DNA of 64,000 nucleotides from positions 568,813 through 632,812 of the forward strand of contig CAZVVT010000001.1 of NCBI GenBank assembly GCA_964630595.1. Reading direction: 5' to 3'. This stretch comes from an uncultured bacterium (GTDB lineage: Bacteria > Chlamydiota > Chlamydiia > Chlamydiales > VFKH01). The position numbers and the translations under genes were made by a program. Positions 12,719 to 31,317 of the stretch are shown in pieces; within the stretch, counting starts at the first letter, position 1, and each line of letters begins with the position of its first letter. The notes beneath the pieces were generated by a model that worked only from the letters and a program-made list of their open reading frames with translations, had not been told where the DNA came from and did not search any database.

Positions 12719-13675
12719 ATGGCAGCAGCAGGTGGGGCAGCTTCGGGAGCTGGGGGCTTTGATCGGACACAGACGGAGCTTCTTAAGCTTCAGGATTCAG
12801 GTCATGTCTTGGGAAGGCACAAGGTCTCTCGTGTTGTGGTTGCTATAGCAAGAGAATCTCTTGAGTCGGGTGCCACTCCTTACGAGAAGGTGCCTGATGC
12901 GGAGGTGCGGGAGATGCTACGGTCTTTTCGTGAATTAAGGCCTGACGCCAGCGGTCCCATTGACGCTATTTTGGCTCGGATAAAAGCTCCTCAAACGCCT
13001 TCTGCAAGCAAACGTCTTCCCAAAGACGTCATCGGTGAAATCGGAGCGATACTTGGGGCCAAAGAGGTTCAAGAGCGCTTCATTGAGGCTGGCGAAGAGG
13101 ATAATGCTGAGGTTCTGCAGTTTCTTTGGCAAAATTTCCAAGACCAATTAGATGATGCCACTATCCAAAAGGTCTTTAATGGTGCCGTTGAACGGGGACG
13201 CACCCATGTTTTACGATGGTTTGGAGACATTCCAGAGCTTTTAAATCGCTTGGGTAATGACAAAATCAGGCAAGCCTTCCGCTCTGTCTTAGCCGATACG
13301 CCGTGGACACTAGGTGCTCTAAAAGGTTTCGCTCATCCAGCCATTGTTCCTCGCCTGGATCCCTTTTGGATCCGAATGATGTTCACAAGTGCTGCAAATG
13401 TGGATAAGAGAGAAACCGTAAAGTGGTTTTGCAATACCCCCATCTTCGCTGCTCACCTCGATACAGGCCCCGATGATGATCTGATTCGAAACACTTTTCA
13501 ATACGCTGCGGAATTTGGACGCCTCCCTATTGTGAAGGAGATTCATGCGCATTTTGCGGCGTGCCTAAATATGCGCACGATCAGAGAGTCTCTCTACCGT
13601 GCGAAGCAGAATGGTCACACCGATATGGTGCAATGGCTTCGCACCACTTTCCGAGAGCTTGAATTTCAGGGCTAA
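12719..13675 (+). CDS. Hypothetical repeat protein with ankyrin-like helical hairpins, inserted between bioB and bioF
   Basis: Four copies of the pattern I(R/Q)xxFxxAxxxG(R/H)xxxVxW(F/L): AVERGRTHVLRWF, SAANVDKRETVKWF, AAEFGRLPIVKEI, AKQNGHTDMVQWL. Confidence 0.5.
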   Translation: MAAAGGAASGAGGFDRTQTELLKLQDSGHVLGRHKVSRVVVAIARESLESGATPYEKVPDAEVREMLRSFRELRPDASGPIDAILARIKAPQTPSASKRLPKDVIGEIGAILGAKEVQERFIEAGEEDNAEVLQFLWQNFQDQLDDATIQKVFNGAVERGRTHVLRWFGDIPELLNRLGNDKIRQAFRSVLADTPWTLGALKGFAHPAIVPRLDPFWIRMMFTSAANVDKRETVKWFCNTPIFAAHLDTGPDDDLIRNTFQYAAEFGRLPIVKEIHAHFAACLNMRTIRESLYRAKQNGHTDMVQWLRTTFRELEFQG

Positions 13676-20731: not shown

Positions 20732-21133
20732 ATGAGAGTCGTTCTTTTTGGGCCACCGTGTGGAGGCAAAACGTGGATTGCGAAACACTACGCAAACTAT
20801 TTTGACCTCGATGAAGCCATTGCCGAGCGGACAGGGCGCACGCCACGCGAAATTCCGGAGAAGGAGTTTCGTGCACTAGAGAAAGAGATGCTCCACACGA
20901 TTGGCGATCAGCAGGTGATTGCCGTCGGCGGGGGCACGGTGCTCGATCCGGAGAATGCCGCCTTTCTAAAGAAGCTGGGGTTGATGGTGTTGGTGCTGCC
21001 CTCCGAAGAGACCCTGCGCGCGCGACTGACCAAAATGGGGCGGGAATACCTGATTCCAGAACTGGCCAAGAGGAAGGGGACGTACGAAGCGCTAGCCGAT
21101 ATCATCGTCGATCCCACACAATGGGAGGCGTGA
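20732..21133 (+). CDS. aroK: Shikimate kinase
   Basis: Walker A LFGPPCGGKTW, 133 aa, between aroA and aroC. Confidence 0.8.
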   Translation: MRVVLFGPPCGGKTWIAKHYANYFDLDEAIAERTGRTPREIPEKEFRALEKEMLHTIGDQQVIAVGGGTVLDPENAAFLKKLGLMVLVLPSEETLRARLTKMGREYLIPELAKRKGTYEALADIIVDPTQWEA

Positions 21134-26593: not shown

Positions 26594-27163
26594 TTACATC
26601 ACGCTACAGTCACAGCACCGATCTGGATCACGACGATTTCTCTCTGCTGCAATCTGAGCCGCCACTTGCAGAATCGCTGCGTTAATGAATGCTAAGATGG
26701 CTTTATCACGCTTTCTCGCCACCCCACTGCAGAATCCGACATCCCCAGGACGTTCCCGAGTTCCGTCAAGAGTAAACCCAGTGAGACACGGCCGAACCAA
26801 TTCAGCCATTCTGCTCAATCCCTCTAAAGCAACATATGGTGGCTGCGTCGTAATCAGTCTCACTACTTCAGCATGCAGGACTTCTGGCGAGGGATGTATA
26901 TGGTAGTGCGTAATATGGATCGTTCCATCCGCTTCTTCTTTCATCGTAACGCCACGAGGTCGAGCAGGGGGCACTCCTCTATTTGGATATACACCAGTTA
27001 AACGCAAGGATCTTTGAGCAGCAGGAGCTCTTATCTCAACAAGAACTGCTATGCTCCTTCCCCCTTTAGCCTCTCCTTTAGCCTCTCCTACAGCTCGTGG
27101 ATCGTCCACCCTTTCCGTTCTCCTTGCTTCACGAGATGCATAAAAGTTAGTCGCTGCTGCCAT
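26594..27163 (-). CDS. Hypothetical protein
   Basis: 189-aa ORF with GC below the local average. Contains a 12-bp x2 tandem repeat encoding GEAKGEAKG. No recognisable motifs. Confidence 0.4.
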   Translation of the reverse strand: MAAATNFYASREARRTERVDDPRAVGEAKGEAKGGRSIAVLVEIRAPAAQRSLRLTGVYPNRGVPPARPRGVTMKEEADGTIHITHYHIHPSPEVLHAEVVRLITTQPPYVALEGLSRMAELVRPCLTGFTLDGTRERPGDVGFCSGVARKRDKAILAFINAAILQVAAQIAAERNRRDPDRCCDCSVM

Positions 27164-27230
27164 ATAAACCCTTTATTAAAAAACCCAATATAGTTTAATT
27201 CAGCAGACCATTTTTTCTACATTCATAAGG

Positions 27231-27349
27231 AATTTTTCTTTATTGCGAGAGGGTTGCATACTGTCTCGGCGTATGAGGACGGGTTCGGTTTTAGGGGCGG
27301 CACTGCTGGTGGCGGAGACGACGATTGGTGCGAGGATGTTGGCGCTGCC
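27231..27349 (+). pseudogene. Orphan duplicate of the tyrP-1 leader plus first 25 codons
   Basis: Matches 28026-28143. Identical aatttttctttatt leader start, then MRTGSVLGAALLVAETTIGARMLAL versus MRTGSVLGAALLVAGTTIGAGMLAL (72/77 nt in the coding part). Diverges completely after codon 26. Confidence 0.9.
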
Positions 27350-27392
27350 ATTTATTAGCGCTGCGTCCACATATTTACTGACAAAACCTCTC

Positions 27393-27941
27393 TCAAAGAG
27401 GCCCATCGTAATCTCTACACTCCAGAGAGCGTCCGCCGCCTAAAAGCGATATCTTATTCAAGACCTCTTGGATTTCAGTATGAATAGAACATCGAGATGA
27501 ATCTAAAATAAGATCGTAATCAAAACCTAGACTTGTAGGGGTTTGGAAAACTTCTGCAAAGGTTTTTTCCACATACGTGCGCGCGTAATAAGCTCTCTTT
27601 GTTGATCGCTGCAATAGAGCAGCTCTTTTAGCATCTCTTTCGAGAAGTTTTGGCAAAGGGGCATATACTAAAACATACAGTTCATTTTCCTGATTTGCCC
27701 TTCGCCAAGGGATTTGAGTGTCAACTATGAGATTTCGATTTTGCGATTGAAAAGAGAGAATAGTTTTCTCAATCAGCTCATCTGCTCCTTCTTCAGTGCA
27801 ACAATTGTTTTCAATCAACTCATCGCAATCTAAGTAACTCCATGAGAGGCCTAGTTCTTGAATGAGAGCTTTAGACAACGTAGATTTCCCCCCACAAGAA
27901 GGTCCAAATACAAAAATTATCGAAGCTAAGAAAAAAAGCAT
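27393..27941 (-). CDS. P-loop kinase, chloramphenicol-phosphotransferase-like (CPT) fold; cargo of AT-rich islet 3
   Basis: Walker A VFGPSCGGKSTLSKAL, LIVDT, YVLVYAPLPKLLERDAKR (parallels the CPT layout). ATG 27941 has a GGGGAG SD-like sequence upstream. A sampled line is about 33 percent GC. Confidence 0.6.
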   Translation of the reverse strand: MLFFLASIIFVFGPSCGGKSTLSKALIQELGLSWSYLDCDELIENNCCTEEGADELIEKTILSFQSQNRNLIVDTQIPWRRANQENELYVLVYAPLPKLLERDAKRAALLQRSTKRAYYARTYVEKTFAEVFQTPTSLGFDYDLILDSSRCSIHTEIQEVLNKISLLGGGRSLECRDYDGPL

Positions 27942-28066
27942 TGGCCTGCTCCCCAAAAATCGGGCCAAATAGAATTCAAGAGAGCAAAGCTAGGCCCAGC
28001 TATCCTTTATGTCAATGGGAGTAGTAATTTTTCTTTATTAGTGTGAACTGTATACTGCTTGGGCGT

Positions 28067-29143
28067 ATGAGGACGGGTTCGGTTTTAGGAGCGGCGCTGC
28101 TGGTGGCGGGGACGACGATTGGGGCGGGGATGTTGGCGCTGCCGACGGTGCTCGGGCCAGCGGGGTTTTGGCCATCGGCGGGAGTGCTAGCGGTCTACTG
28201 GCTCTTGAGCTACTTCTGCGGGCAGATGTTCATTGCGGTGACGCTGGCCTTTGAAGAGCCAGTGAATCTGCATAGCATGGTGAAGGCGACGCTGGGGCGC
28301 GGCGGAGAGATCCTCTGCTGGGTGCTCTATTTGGGGCTGCTCTATTCTCTGACCGCGGCCTACTTGTCAGGCGGTCATGCCATTGTGAAATCATTGACCG
28401 GCATCGAGCCTACGGTATTGTTGGTGGTCTTCGGCGCGGTGATTGCCATGGGCGCTTTTGCCGTTGATTGGGTCAATCGCGTTTTCATGGTCGGTTTGGT
28501 GGTGGCCTATGTGATGCTGATCGGTGCGATGGCGCCCAAACTCGACTTGTCGCTGCTTTCGCGCACCAACGGTTCGATGGTCTGGCTGGCGCTGCCGACG
28601 GTAGTTACATCGTTTGGATACCAGATCATCATTCCCACTCTGTCGCAGTACTTGCACCGCGATCGCAAGAAAATCCACAGAGCCGTCTTGTGGGGCAGCT
28701 TGAGCGGCCTGATCGTCTATCTGATTTTCCAGTTCATCATGCTCGGATCGGTAACACCGGAGCAAGTCGCCTTTGCACAGAAAGCGGGTGAGCCCATTTT
28801 GCCATCGACGATCGCCGTGGCCTTTTCTTTCTTTGCGATCATCACCTCTTTGCTAGGTGTGAGCTTGTCGCTCAGAGATTTTCTCGGTGACGCCTTCCGA
28901 ATGAAGAACAGAGCGATTCCTGTTGTGCTGACCTTCTTGCCACCGCTGCTCTTTGCAATACTGATCCCGCGCGCGTTTTTGATTGCGCTGGATTGGGCCG
29001 GCATCATCGTCTGCCTGCTTTTGGGGCTGATGCCCGTTGCTCTTGTGCTGCGCAAAAAGCTTCCTGGATGGCGTGCGAAGGCAGCTGTTGTTGTCATCGG
29101 TTACACGGCAACCATCATTGCTGACTGGGTACAACGCTTATGA
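28067..29143 (+). CDS. tyrP: Aromatic amino acid (Tyr/Trp) permease, HAAAP family, copy 1
   Basis: MRTGSVLGAALLVAGTTIGAGMLALP N-terminus, about 11 hydrophobic segments. ATG 28067 is preferred over GTG 28043. Confidence 0.85.
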   Translation: MRTGSVLGAALLVAGTTIGAGMLALPTVLGPAGFWPSAGVLAVYWLLSYFCGQMFIAVTLAFEEPVNLHSMVKATLGRGGEILCWVLYLGLLYSLTAAYLSGGHAIVKSLTGIEPTVLLVVFGAVIAMGAFAVDWVNRVFMVGLVVAYVMLIGAMAPKLDLSLLSRTNGSMVWLALPTVVTSFGYQIIIPTLSQYLHRDRKKIHRAVLWGSLSGLIVYLIFQFIMLGSVTPEQVAFAQKAGEPILPSTIAVAFSFFAIITSLLGVSLSLRDFLGDAFRMKNRAIPVVLTFLPPLLFAILIPRAFLIALDWAGIIVCLLLGLMPVALVLRKKLPGWRAKAAVVVIGYTATIIADWVQRL

Positions 29144-30285
29144 AACGAATGATCGGAGCAACGCTGTTGGTCGCCGGCACCGCCATCGGCGCGGGCATGC
29201 TCGCATTGCCTGTGGCTACAGCGCAGGGCGGTTTTCTCGCCTCAGCGGCAGTCTTTATCGGCGTCTGGTTTGTTACGCTTATCTCCGCATTCTTAGTGCT
29301 CGAGGCGTGCTTGTGGTTGCCCGGTGAAGTGAATCTGGTTTCGTTGAGTCGCGCAACACTGGGGCGCGCGTGCGCTGCCGTTGTGTGGGTGCTCTTCTTG
29401 TTGCTGCTCTACTCGCTCACTGCGGCCTATCTCTCCGGCAGCGGCTCTATCATCAATTCTGCATTGCACGGCCTCTTCGGCATCACACTGCCGCATGAAG
29501 TGCAGGTGCTCATTCCGTTGATCCTGCTCTCGCCCTTTGTGGTCCTGGGCACCAGCACCGTCGATCTCTTCAACCGCATCCTCATGATCGGTCTCATCGG
29601 CACCTACCTTGTTTTGGTGGGCGCTGCGACACCACGCGTCGATCAACTCTCCGCCGGCCACTTCGCCCCACTCTTCGGCGCCCTGCCCGTTATCGTCACT
29701 TCGTTCGGCTTCCACGTCGTGATTCCCTCCCTGACCTCTTACCTGAAACATGACCGCCGCAAGTTGCAGTGGGCCATCTTCTGGGGCAGCCTTCTGGCCC
29801 TGTTCGTCTACCTTGCGTGGGAGGCCATCGTCTTCGGCGTCGTGCCGATAGAGGGGCTCCTGGATGTGCAAGCACGCGGCGTTCCCGTCACTGATGCCCT
29901 GGCCGCTCTGACTGGCAAGCCGTGGATCCAAACCTCCGCCATCCTCTTCTCCTTCTTCGCCATTGTCACCTCCTTCCTGGGGCTTTCGCTCAGCCTCTTT
30001 AGCTTCCTCCGTGACGGCACCCAGCACCGCTTTGGCAAGATCCGCATCGCCCTGCTTACCTTCCTCCCGCCCCTGCTCTTCGCCCAGCTCTTTCCCAAAG
30101 GCTTCATCCTTGCCCTGGAGTACGCCGGCGTCATCGTCGCCCTCATCTCCGGCATCCTGCCCGCCTTCATGGTCTGGAAGGGGAGGAGGCACTTTAGCGG
30201 CTGGCGCCTCGGCGGCGGCAAGCTGGTCCTCATCGCTCTGATTCTGCTATCATTCGTGGTAGCTATTTCGGACCTGCTGAAATAA
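29140..30285 (+). CDS. tyrP: Aromatic amino acid (Tyr/Trp) permease, HAAAP family, copy 2
   Basis: MKRMIGATLLVAGTAIGAGMLALP. Paralog of the preceding gene, with an ATGA start/stop overlap. Confidence 0.85.
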   Translation: MKRMIGATLLVAGTAIGAGMLALPVATAQGGFLASAAVFIGVWFVTLISAFLVLEACLWLPGEVNLVSLSRATLGRACAAVVWVLFLLLLYSLTAAYLSGSGSIINSALHGLFGITLPHEVQVLIPLILLSPFVVLGTSTVDLFNRILMIGLIGTYLVLVGAATPRVDQLSAGHFAPLFGALPVIVTSFGFHVVIPSLTSYLKHDRRKLQWAIFWGSLLALFVYLAWEAIVFGVVPIEGLLDVQARGVPVTDALAALTGKPWIQTSAILFSFFAIVTSFLGLSLSLFSFLRDGTQHRFGKIRIALLTFLPPLLFAQLFPKGFILALEYAGVIVALISGILPAFMVWKGRRHFSGWRLGGGKLVLIALILLSFVVAISDLLK

Positions 30286-30377
30286 CTCAAGAAAAGTCGT
30301 CATTCCTGCACAAGTGACTTTTATTATTTAGCCATCTCATAATGCTCAGGACTTACTTGTTATTTTGGGAGGGTTTT

Positions 30378-31277
30378 ATGGCTGCAGTAGCTAGAAGTTT
30401 TGGTAGAGTAGCAGCAGGTTTCGCTAGTGCGGGTGCAAGCTCTATGGTGTTTGGCCGAAGGGTCTTCCATTGCGCCAGCGGAAAAAGCTGCGAGAGGATA
30501 GACATCACTGGCTCGATTACTTCAACAAATGACGACCTCAATCTAACTCGTGTTGTCGCGTCACAAGTTAACGGCAAAAACGTCGGGCTCTCGCTTTCGG
30601 CAGTCCTTTCGGACGTTACTGCCAAGGGGAACGTCAGGCTCTGGAATTCAACTGTCGACGGAAATGTTCTTGCTTCGGGAAACGTTACTTTTGAAAACTC
30701 CCGCTGCAATAGCAGGGTTGAAGTCGCGGGTTCTGTAACCTTACTCGATCACAGTCGGATTGGCTCTGGTTCTTCTGATGAAGCTTTTACGATAACAGAC
30801 TCTGCTGTCGATACTAGTTTCATTGCACAAGGCCCTGTAAAAGCCTGTCGCGCATCCATTTCTGGCCGGATTGTGTCTGAAGGAGAGCTACAGTTGGAGT
30901 GTTGCCACGTAGGTTCCGCAGCAGCACCATCGATGAGCATCAAAAAATCCACAATTTATGGTGATGTATCCACCGAAGTAGCAAGGATTTTCTTCTCTAG
31001 TATTCGCGGTACGCTTCGTTGTCGCCAATCAACTCTTGAACTCAAGGGCTGCACTATCAAAAATATTCATATCGCAGCTCCTCTCGAGAGCACCGAGGAG
31101 CTAACCGATAACGGAAAGCATGCGATTCGCGTCTTCTTAAGTGATGAGACAACAGTTGATAGTATAACTTTTGCTTCTGACTGTTGGGGAACCATTTATG
31201 CAACAAAAACAACAGCTACAGTTAAAAAGGTCGTCAACGGGCATTTCAATCTTTTTTGGGCTCTCTTTGCGCCATAA
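30378..31277 (+). CDS. Hypothetical beta-helix (bactofilin-like repeat) protein; cargo of islet 4
   Basis: ATG 30378 preceded by GGGAGG. Repeats such as VTAKGNVRLWNSTVDGNVLASGNVTFENSRCNSRVEVAGSVTLLD resemble polymer-forming bactofilin/DUF583 windings. Confidence 0.5.
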   Translation: MAAVARSFGRVAAGFASAGASSMVFGRRVFHCASGKSCERIDITGSITSTNDDLNLTRVVASQVNGKNVGLSLSAVLSDVTAKGNVRLWNSTVDGNVLASGNVTFENSRCNSRVEVAGSVTLLDHSRIGSGSSDEAFTITDSAVDTSFIAQGPVKACRASISGRIVSEGELQLECCHVGSAAAPSMSIKKSTIYGDVSTEVARIFFSSIRGTLRCRQSTLELKGCTIKNIHIAAPLESTEELTDNGKHAIRVFLSDETTVDSITFASDCWGTIYATKTTATVKKVVNGHFNLFWALFAP

Positions 31278-31284
31278 ACCGTCT

Positions 31285-31317
31285 TTTGTGGTAGCCATTG
31301 CGGACCTACTGAAATAA
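31285..31317 (+). repeat. Orphan duplicate of the tyrP-2 3' end (10 codons + TAA)
   Basis: 29/33 nt identical to 30253-30285; FVVAIADLLK* versus FVVAISDLLK*. The 10-mer agtcgtcatt is also shared at 30295-30304 and 31335-31344. Confidence 0.8.

Follow-up and report, generated by a model that had tools for sequence, protein, structure and literature searches.

The locus described here raises the question of why the beginning of tyrP-1, a Trp_Tyr_perm transporter gene, is present twice in the 64,000-nucleotide stretch of DNA that we analysed (the window), with a P-loop kinase gene lying between the two copies. In our assessment, the repeat is probably the footprint of a foreign-gene insertion in which the target was duplicated in place, and the upstream (orphan) copy is a functionless remnant of that event. 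The features of the locus are the following.

26594..27163, minus strand: ORF189, low GC3 (0.37), occupying the gap between thyX and the orphan
27228..27349, plus strand: orphan (left) repeat copy, the 45-nt tyrP-1 leader and the first 25.7 codons, ATG at 27273
27273..27443, plus strand: orphan reading frame, 56 aa, which extends past the repeat into the final 16 codons and the stop of the kinase gene
27350..28022, no strand assigned: inserted segment, 673 bp, 40.9% GC
27393..27941, minus strand: P-loop kinase gene, 182 aa, Walker A GPSCGGKS, GC3 0.33
28023..28143, plus strand: functional (right) repeat copy, which runs on into the tyrP-1 body, ATG at 28067
28067..29143, plus strand: tyrP-1, the intact Trp_Tyr_perm transporter gene, with a stop that overlaps the tyrP-2 start (ATGA)

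A preliminary description of this DNA had reported that the tyrP-1 leader and 25 codons occur twice, about 795 bp apart, and a repeat search and a gapped alignment agree on this. The gapped alignment pairs 27228-27349 with 28023-28143 (121-122 nt, ~86% identity) and places one or two indels in the leader part across both copies, and the repeat search returned a core of 92-95 nt at 91% identity (27255-27349 vs. 28049-28143). Start to start, the copies are 794-795 bp apart, and the pair has an E value of 1e-30 in a self-BLAST of the window. The repeat is made up of 44-45 nt of leader and 77 nt of coding sequence (25.7 codons), and similarity ends abruptly at each of its edges in the alignment. 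Both copies are GC-rich (0.62) like the host, which argues for their derivation from this genome.

The downstream copy heads an intact tyrP-1, as had been stated previously; the product of its ORF matches Pfam Trp_Tyr_perm (PF03222) over the full length of the family (E = 1.9e-69, residues 11-341), and the N-terminal GTTIGAGMLALP motif is intact. The orphan clearly resembles tyrP-1 and reads LLVAETTIGARMLALP, where the functional copy reads LLVAGTTIGAGMLALP. Its substitutions are G15E and G21R, both at glycines that are conserved in 11-12 of 12 aligned homologues. The preliminary description had placed both glycine changes inside TIGAGMLALP; the changes themselves are present, but the G-to-E change sits two residues before the motif. 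Its suggestion that the orphan is decaying is borne out with tyrP-2 as the outgroup, since the derived state is on the orphan at 4/4 polarisable differences. The ORF coordinates also bear out the overlap that it reported, in which the orphan ORF (27243-27443, or 27273-27443 from the ATG) shares 51 nt, at 27393-27443, with the minus-strand kinase ORF.

The kinase is the single gene in the 673-bp insert, and only 43 nt of the insert remain downstream of it. A version of the ORF extended to 27968 begins at an upstream TTG that is unused by homologues. The composition of the segment (41% GC, kinase GC3 of 0.33) contrasts with that of tyrP-1, tyrP-2, and thyX (GC3 0.70-0.78), a difference that points to an insertion; the flanking host genes have ~56-60% GC. 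Transfer is likewise suggested by the 74% identity of the kinase to its nearest homologue, which comes from a low-GC chlamydia-like contig, whereas the best match of the host TyrP-1 to any other protein in the databases reaches 47% identity. The contigs that carry kinase homologues have 38-45% GC, and a scan of genome contigs with TyrP-1 returned a single locus at 34% identity.

Gene order in relatives leads to the same conclusion. The two closest relatives share the order hemB-thyX-tyrP1-tyrP2-trpS-uvrB with a thyX-tyrP1 spacer of 155 bp and 3 bp, respectively, and the kinase, ORF189, and ORF311 are all absent from the locus in both. As thyX is directly followed by tyrP-1 in these genomes, the kinase segment is an insertion. 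The site in the two relatives (47% amino acid identity) is thus empty at the level of gene order; at this distance the original copy is not directly readable, and the predicted DNA pattern of the empty site had no match in metagenome contigs. ORF189, which adjoins the orphan on its outer side, is also foreign; no homologue of it was found anywhere searched. Given that this foreign gene lies beyond the orphan and lacks a repeat of its own, a second event must be assumed.

With regard to the kinase itself, the best matches in the fold comparison were APS, adenylate, and shikimate kinases, i.e., a generic NMP/APS-kinase fold. Pfam matches (AAA_18, AAA_33, and CPT) were all below the cut-off, and PADLOC, NCBIfam, and a PDB sequence search gave no toxin, defence, or specific-enzyme assignment. 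Judging from its sequence and modelled structure, the protein may be an accessory enzyme of ordinary appearance. We considered a shikimate kinase on account of the nearby aro genes and rejected it, as a native aroK is located at 20732-21133 and the islet kinase resembles SKI in the P-loop only. An abnormal extension of the kinase C-terminus into the junction was rejected as well, as tails vary across the family; the kinase codons that the orphan overlaps encode a non-conserved tail, which has low confidence in the structure model.

The tyrP-1 locus is one of four islets in the window that share this architecture. The other three, all at or near 3' ends of host genes, are listed below.

1449..2631, plus strand: islet 1, rsgA, 99-nt 3' end duplicated (1449-1547, 2533-2631) at 95% identity; insert of 985 bp, 39.5% GC, carrying ORF267
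11914..12685, plus strand: islet 2, bioB, 63 nt near the 3' end duplicated at 82.5% identity; insert of 646 bp, carrying a Cass2/GyrI-like gene
30250..31317, plus strand: islet 4, tyrP-2, last 36 nt duplicated at 86% identity; insert of 996 bp, carrying ORF311

The window contains six genes of clearly low GC3; direct repeats of a host-gene end, 36-122 nt long, border four of them, and the remaining two abut an orphan copy. No direct repeats were found around ORF189, ORF312, and ORF318. In islets 1 and 4, the repeat terminates precisely at the host stop codon. A tyrosine or serine recombinase gene was not found in any of the four inserts, and all four were without terminal inverted repeats (score at shuffle level) and without an end motif in common. 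The inserts also share no palindromic end motif of the integron attC kind and contain no integrase (IntI). We note that the preliminary description missed the main point, which is that the kinase segment is an insertion and that the repeat would be its flanking target duplication, one of four such cases.

The order of events that we propose begins with an ancestor in which thyX was followed almost directly by tyrP-1. A low-GC fragment of 673 bp, with a complete kinase gene and its own promoter, would have entered the extreme 5' end of tyrP-1, and ~120 bp of target (the leader and 25 codons) would have been duplicated in place, leaving one copy on each side of the insert. The simplest route may be that a break with long staggered ends captured foreign DNA; alternatively, a replication template switch could have resumed ~120 nt behind its departure point. 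A dedicated recombinase would be unnecessary for the duplication. With the downstream copy joined to the gene body, tyrP-1 would have kept its complete coding sequence and core promoter, so that the insertion was tolerated, and the upstream copy would have become a functionless stub that gained AT-biased substitutions. The orphans are indeed AT-shifted: a G or C in the functional copy is an A or T in the orphan 16 times, and the reverse occurs 7 times.

The closest described phenomenon for the tyrP-1 scar is insertion with long target duplication, which has been described for restriction-modification genes (Nobusato et al. 2000, Gene 259:99; PMC2853133). The published repeats are 46-423 bp long and frequently extend over the start codon or the stop codon of the target gene (Furuta, Abe & Kobayashi 2010, NAR 38:2428, PMC2853133), which leaves that gene intact; the authors propose a role for DNA breakage by the restriction-modification enzymes (PMC2853133). 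The islets in the window resemble these cases in having a short, compositionally deviant segment, direct repeats of variable length above 30 bp (36-122 bp here), no transposase, integrase, or inverted repeat, and a preserved target gene. On sequence grounds, the combination of variable repeat length with the lack of mobile-element features argues for an insertion of this type. The islets differ in their cargo, which consists of a GyrI/Cass2-like protein, a kinase, and two proteins of unassigned function (ORF267 and ORF311) instead of the restriction-modification systems that were the search criterion of the published survey (PMC2853133); family and fold searches found no restriction-modification domains in the kinase cargo. 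They also differ in their GC-rich chlamydia-like host, with four events within 64 kb, and in that the empty site here is seen at the level of gene order, not of nucleotides.

It is possible, though we regard it as unlikely, that the repeat was instead carried in by the element as a replacement gene end, in other words that a cassette brought the tyrP-1 leader and 25 codons from a close relative. A small integrative or circular unit would then have recombined by a site-specific or RecA-mediated (Campbell-type) process, leaving its own copy at the head of tyrP-1 and the native 5' end stranded upstream. Integrative elements that replace a gene end include e14 and phage 21 in icd (3' end) and SXT in prfC (5' end); they are 20-100 kb in size, carry an integrase gene, and rely on a defined core site. 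The promoter and the new 5' end that SXT supplies have a parallel in islet 3 (the tyrP-1 locus). As with e14 in icd and SXT in prfC, the repeat here corresponds to a protein-gene end, with one copy completing the working gene and the other left as a stranded pseudo-end, and the copies differ chiefly at synonymous sites. The inserts in the window are unlike these elements in that they measure 0.65-1 kb, contain a single gene, and have no recombinase or common core.

The repeat ends at the stop codon in islets 1 and 4 would be expected if the coding part alone had been kept similar. A random staggered break would rarely hit a stop codon twice, and these ends fit an element-borne replacement gene end better than a duplication in place. 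The differences between copies are skewed in the same direction, as 17/26 are at third codon positions, codon differences are synonymous in 16 cases and not in 9, and the 275 nt contain no indels, a pattern closer to that of coding sequence than decay alone would give. The third-position bias has p=0.0008 against an expectation of 1/3 but is marginal (p ~0.03-0.08) when selection on the working copy and AT-biased mutation of the GC-rich third positions are allowed for; with GC3 and mutation bias taken into account, codon positions do not tell an in-place duplication from an imported copy.

A replacement gene end would also be in line with the occurrence of the same kinase gene in single-gene modules of low-GC relatives (L004 and L001). 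These modules are located beside the tmRNA gene, have repeats from the ssrA 3' end, and are bounded by a conserved ~30-nt motif that mimics the tmRNA 3' end, which indicates that att-like, element-borne repeats accompany the kinase cargo elsewhere. In these tmRNA-linked islands the motif is conserved in two genomes and hence element-borne, whereas the repeats in the window are host tyrP-1 sequence; the tmRNA-like motif was not found in the window, and the DNA homology of the kinase with other loci ends at the coding sequence. No integrase and no core or end motif common to the four inserts was found, and four different target genes would need four specificities. Furthermore, with repeats that are host-like in GC and a cargo of 41% GC, the donor would need to be a close, as yet unsampled relative in which the islet was already present.

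The preliminary description had offered a functional reading, in which the tyrP promoter on the orphan copy yields an antisense RNA over the kinase 3' end, under joint control with tyrP and in the style of a type I toxin-antitoxin system. We consider this very unlikely. The promoter-like sites that bear on it are the following.

27195..27223, plus strand: extra promoter-like site TTAATT-17-TACATT, just outside the repeat and directed into the orphan, score 8.8
27234..27262, plus strand: orphan version TTTTCT-17-CATACT, weakened, score 6.6
27987..28015, minus strand: promoter-like site TTGACA-17-TAGCTT of the kinase itself, located within the insert, score 12.4 (95th percentile of background, 8.9)
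28029..28056, plus strand: promoter-like TTTTCT-16-TATACT in the functional leader copy, sigma-70-like, score 8.7, ~95th percentile of background

The idea that the leader contains a promoter is upheld to the extent that the functional copy has this sigma-70-like element, which, as read from the sequence, would yield a near-leaderless tyrP-1 mRNA. The orphan version has lost the first T of its -10 box, and a stricter consensus scan for promoters and terminators gave no match at either leader copy, with terminators at chance number. The layout would allow antisense transcription, as there are promoter-like sites in the orphan and just upstream of it, the genes are convergent with a 51-nt overlap, and no plus-strand terminator was found between the orphan and the kinase stop; the kinase hairpin at ~27385-27400 has no U-tract on the plus strand. 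On the other hand, no significant structure was predicted when the two leader copies and the convergent overlap were folded as RNA (z-scores of -1.25 to +0.67), and Rfam had no match in the region at gathering and permissive thresholds. The kinase family is solitary in eight unrelated neighbourhoods, without a tyrP fragment, a convergent partner, or any constant partner gene. The same repeat architecture surrounds three unrelated cargo genes in other orientations, and the orphan is explained without a function.

The likeness to type I toxin-antitoxin systems is one of geometry only, in that a convergent transcript may overlap a protein gene at its 3' end. A small hydrophobic toxin gene is lacking here, as is an antisense partner conserved among the homologues, and the soluble 182-aa kinase showed no match to a toxin family. 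The kinase also differs from Zeta/PezT-type kinase toxins, with no Zeta_toxin match in sequence or fold and no small gene adjacent. Convergent transcription into the kinase 3' end is possible and would probably be an incidental by-product, not a selected control circuit.

We find it still harder to accept that the orphan is the head of a third tyrP paralogue, left over from a tandem triplication in which most of the upstream copy was replaced or deleted. The resemblance to tyrP-1 and the tandem pair of tyrP genes, present here and in relatives, would suit such an origin. However, a tandem copy predicts that the tyrP-1 leader is preceded by a tyrP 3' end and not by kinase DNA, and it does not predict the abrupt loss of similarity at both edges; the relatives have two copies only, right after thyX, and the occurrence of the same arrangement at the 3' end of tyrP-2 and at rsgA and bioB would be left unexplained. 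An assembly artefact, in which two strain variants were threaded serially into a false repeat of ~90% identity, would account for the mostly synonymous differences but is scarcely credible, as a graph assembler needs reads for both insert-repeat junctions to make such a path, the orphan bears damaging glycine changes, and two public assemblies made independently from other sequencing runs agree at 100% identity through both copies (6.5 kb and 4.1 kb), which rules out a one-off artefact.

Taken alone, the tyrP-1 orphan would be a harmless scar. The value of the insertion with target duplication that we favour lies in its being one of four clean examples, within 64 kb, of single foreign genes gained with host genes left unbroken, in a compact genome of intracellular type without visible mobile-element machinery. 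As the end of the target gene is duplicated, the host gene survives. If the pattern were genome-wide, it would extend a little-studied mode of insertion beyond restriction-modification genes and into the Chlamydiae, and a low-GC3 gene with a flanking gene-end repeat could serve as a signature for dating and counting gene gains.

A broader proposal, which we hold to be quite doubtful, is that this genome gains genes mainly by recombinase-independent insertion with long target duplication at the ends of genes, and that the repeats turn the islets into cassettes that RecA can re-mobilise. If true, the islets would be excisable single-gene cassettes, transferable between related cells as an integrase-free cassette system, and the kinase modules flanked by tmRNA ends that occur in other chlamydiae would be a more evolved version of it. 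This main-route reading fits all four islets with flanking repeats and, arguably, each of the six foreign genes in the 64 kb. The host is a GC-rich, deep-branching, chlamydia-like genome.

The leader and 5' coding end of tyrP-1 occur twice in the window, as the preliminary description had reported, with the same spacing of 794-795 bp. Our searches by repeat detection and gapped alignment delimited the copies as follows.

27255-27349 and 28049-28143: core direct repeat, 95 nt, 91% identity (repeat detection)
27228-27349 and 28023-28143: extended repeat, 121-122 nt, ~86% identity (gapped alignment, and BLAST against two independent assemblies)

The repeat holds 44-45 nt 5' of the ATG and the first 77 nt of the coding sequence, with indels restricted to the leader portion in the gapped alignment, and its E-value was 1e-30 when the whole window was compared with itself. 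Two independent Logan assemblies from other sequencing runs matched the window at 100% identity across stretches of 6.5 kb and 4.1 kb that include both copies, so the structure is real.

The ORF continuing from the downstream copy matched the Trp/Tyr permease family (1.9e-69), and based on alignment with homologues we judged its true start to be the ATG at 28067. The upstream copy (the orphan) translates as MRTGSVLGAALLVAETTIGARMLAL, in which two glycines kept in nearly all aligned homologues are altered, and its frame extends to 27443, running over the final 16 codons and the stop codon of the minus-strand ORF 27393-27968. With tyrP-2 as outgroup, 4/4 informative differences were derived in the orphan, and across orphans the differences between copies were polarised towards A/T (16 vs 7). 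These changes bear out the suggestion that the orphan is a decayed duplicate. With regard to the intact gene, tyrP-1 (28067-29143) encodes 358 aa vs 378-415 aa in relatives, and its match extends no further than position 364 of the 393-position Pfam model. The tyrP-1 stop and the tyrP-2 start overlap as ATGA, no clear Shine-Dalgarno sequence was seen 5' of the tyrP-1 ATG, and its best -10 box would yield a nearly leaderless mRNA.

Between the copies lie 673 bp (27350-28022) of 41% GC, where host genes of the region have 56-60% GC. The only gene in this insert encodes a P-loop kinase of 182 aa (ATG at 27941) with Walker A motif GPSCGGKS and the remaining family-invariant residues intact; its GC3 is 0.33 vs 0.70-0.78 for tyrP-1, tyrP-2, and thyX. 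The nearest kinase homologues (74%, 73%, and 66-68% identity) are on chlamydia-like contigs of 38-45% GC, while no relative of the host TyrP-1 exceeded 47% identity, a disparity that points to recent import of the kinase. The structure model is of high confidence (pLDDT 89) and resembles APS, adenylate, shikimate, and related nucleotide kinases at 13-21% identity. A shikimate kinase is ruled out, since the native one is present in the adjoining aro cluster and the islet kinase would thus be a different enzyme. Searches of Pfam, NCBIfam, and PADLOC returned only sub-threshold generic P-loop matches, leaving nothing to mark it as a toxin. The insert also carries a strong promoter-like site on the minus strand (TTGACA-17-TAGCTT, 28015-27987; score 12.4 vs a background 95th percentile of 8.9).

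We compared the locus with the two closest relatives retrieved (TyrP 47% and 44% identical). The order aroB, hemB, thyX, tyrP-1, tyrP-2, trpS, uvrB is shared by the window and both relatives, in which thyX is followed directly by tyrP-1 (spacers of 155 bp and 3 bp) and tyrP-2 abuts trpS. The kinase and two other low-GC3 ORFs of the window, ORF189 and ORF311, were all absent from their thyX-trpS region. By this empty-site comparison, proposed in the preliminary description and made at gene-order resolution, the relatives being too distant for the nucleotide level, the kinase segment appears to be an insertion. The 155-bp spacer, that of the nearest relative (L012), is ordinary. L012 has an extra 404-aa gene (11467-12681) in the trpS-uvrB interval, missing at window 32443/32431, and lacks the aroA-aroK-aroC genes found in the window between a YjbH-like gene and aroB.

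A window-wide search for significant close direct repeats enclosing low-GC DNA returned exactly four islets.

1449-1547 and 2533-2631: islet 1, rsgA 3' end, 99 nt, 95% identity; insert of 985 bp with ORF267
11914-11976 and 12623-12685: islet 2, bioB 3' end, 63 nt, 82.5% identity; insert of 646 bp with a Cass2/GyrI-like gene
27228-27349 and 28023-28143: islet 3, tyrP-1 5' end, 121-122 nt, 86% identity; insert of 673 bp with the P-loop kinase
30250-30285 and 31282-31317: islet 4, tyrP-2 3' end, 36 nt, 86% identity; insert of 996 bp with ORF311

Given this shared architecture, the orphan tyrP-1 head is probably one case of a general insertion footprint and not a locus-specific device. By a crude gene call, only six genes in the window have GC3 <0.46, and four of them are the islet cargo genes. 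The other two, ORF189 (26594-27163) and an ankyrin-repeat ORF (12719-13675), each directly adjoin an orphan copy on its outer side, and neither is itself flanked by repeats, a pattern suggesting either that these gene ends were hit more than once or that their history was more complex. No terminal inverted repeats, common end motif, or recombinase gene were found in the four inserts.

The islet 1 repeat consists of the 3'-terminal 99 nt of rsgA with its stop codon, and both copies end exactly at TAA; its insert has 39.5% GC, and ORF267 has no family match. At islet 2, the working bioB now continues into the insert, which adds an 18-aa tail, the orphan copy retains the natural ending TSR*, and the Cass2/GyrI-like gene has its stop codon inside that copy. 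Upstream of bioB is a PTP-like phytase/dual-specificity phosphatase ORF (10206-11144, HCRGGRGRT motif) that could be an effector-type gene; the longest ORFs of the two overlap by 116 nt, and the true bioB start may be further downstream. The islet 4 repeat takes in the 3'-terminal 36 nt of tyrP-2, stop codon included. The only relatives of ORF311 are remote and repeat-like (best non-self E=7e-12), and ORF189 had no homologue among 5.8 billion proteins.

The closest published description of the islet 3 architecture is "insertion with long target duplication", found for restriction-modification (RM) genes by genome comparison, mostly in naturally competent species, with flanking repeats of variable length (46-423 bp) and without other mobility genes (PMC2853133). 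Islet 3 would likewise have arisen by in-place duplication of the target around an incoming segment. We favour this reading because the two repeat copies, unlike the cargo, are similar to the host in GC (0.62), and because of the A/T-ward differences of the orphans and the derived states in the tyrP-1 orphan. The main rival, that one copy was imported with the cassette as a working gene end, resembles e14 in icd and SXT in prfC, elements that bring such an end with them. It would naturally explain why the repeats of islets 1 and 4 terminate exactly at the host stop codon and why third codon positions hold 17/26 differences, with 0 indels in 275 nt. When the working copy is taken to be under selection and GC-rich third positions to mutate with an AT bias, the codon bias drops to p ~0.03-0.08; we therefore retain this model as the main rival, though an unlikely one. 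On the favoured reading of in-place duplication, islet 3 is the scar of an insertion, of a type already described but seldom remarked upon. Such scars occur here with non-RM cargo, in a chlamydia-like genome, and at notable density.

It had also been proposed that the orphan leader drives an antisense RNA into the kinase gene, in a type I toxin-antitoxin-like arrangement. A position-weight scan against background scored three promoter-like sites, all of which failed a stricter consensus scan.

28029-28056: functional leader, TTTTCT-16-TATACT, score 8.7 (~95th percentile of background)
27234-27262: orphan leader, TTTTCT-17-CATACT, score 6.6
27195-27223: just upstream of the orphan, TTAATT-17-TACATT, score 8.8

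Since no obvious plus-strand terminator lies between the orphan-side sites and the kinase stop, convergent transcription into the kinase 3' end is plausible, and nothing suggests selection for it. Regulation of this kind is unsupported: the promoter-like sites are weak, the part of the kinase that is overlapped (residues 166-182) is not conserved and is of low model confidence, neither an RNA family match nor unusual RNA structure was found at the locus, and kinase homologues stand alone in 8 different neighbourhoods, without a tyrP fragment or constant partner.

The same kinase is present in two low-GC chlamydia-like genomes (loci L004 and L001), where it lies in modules of one gene each, delimited by a conserved ~30-nt motif resembling the tmRNA 3' end and located next to a tmRNA gene, an arrangement that bears on the imported-gene-end rival. 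In 4 other genomes the gene lacks flanking repeats and has host-like GC. With such differing flanks, the kinase is itinerant cargo, the repeat type being set by the host locus and not by the gene. In L004 and L001, the motif (AATCAAAAGTTCTGAATGCGTCTC..CACCTCCAA) separates modules for the kinase, HIT, and ArsB at the following positions.

5880-5913, 6518-6551, and 7234-7259: tmRNA-3'-end-like motif in L004
856-883 and 2187-2214: tmRNA-3'-end-like motif in L001

The L004 modules are downstream of a tmRNA gene at 3387-3755; the L001 kinase follows a tmRNA-3'-end-like sequence (~200-262) with no ARAGORN call there. In both, minimal integrative modules seem to have accumulated in tandem. At a further locus, L002, a kinase homologue and an M48 peptidase gene are flanked by two copies (4692-4829 and 6580-6718; 98% identity) of a MITE-like palindrome, an element of 139 nt whose ends form long inverted arms.
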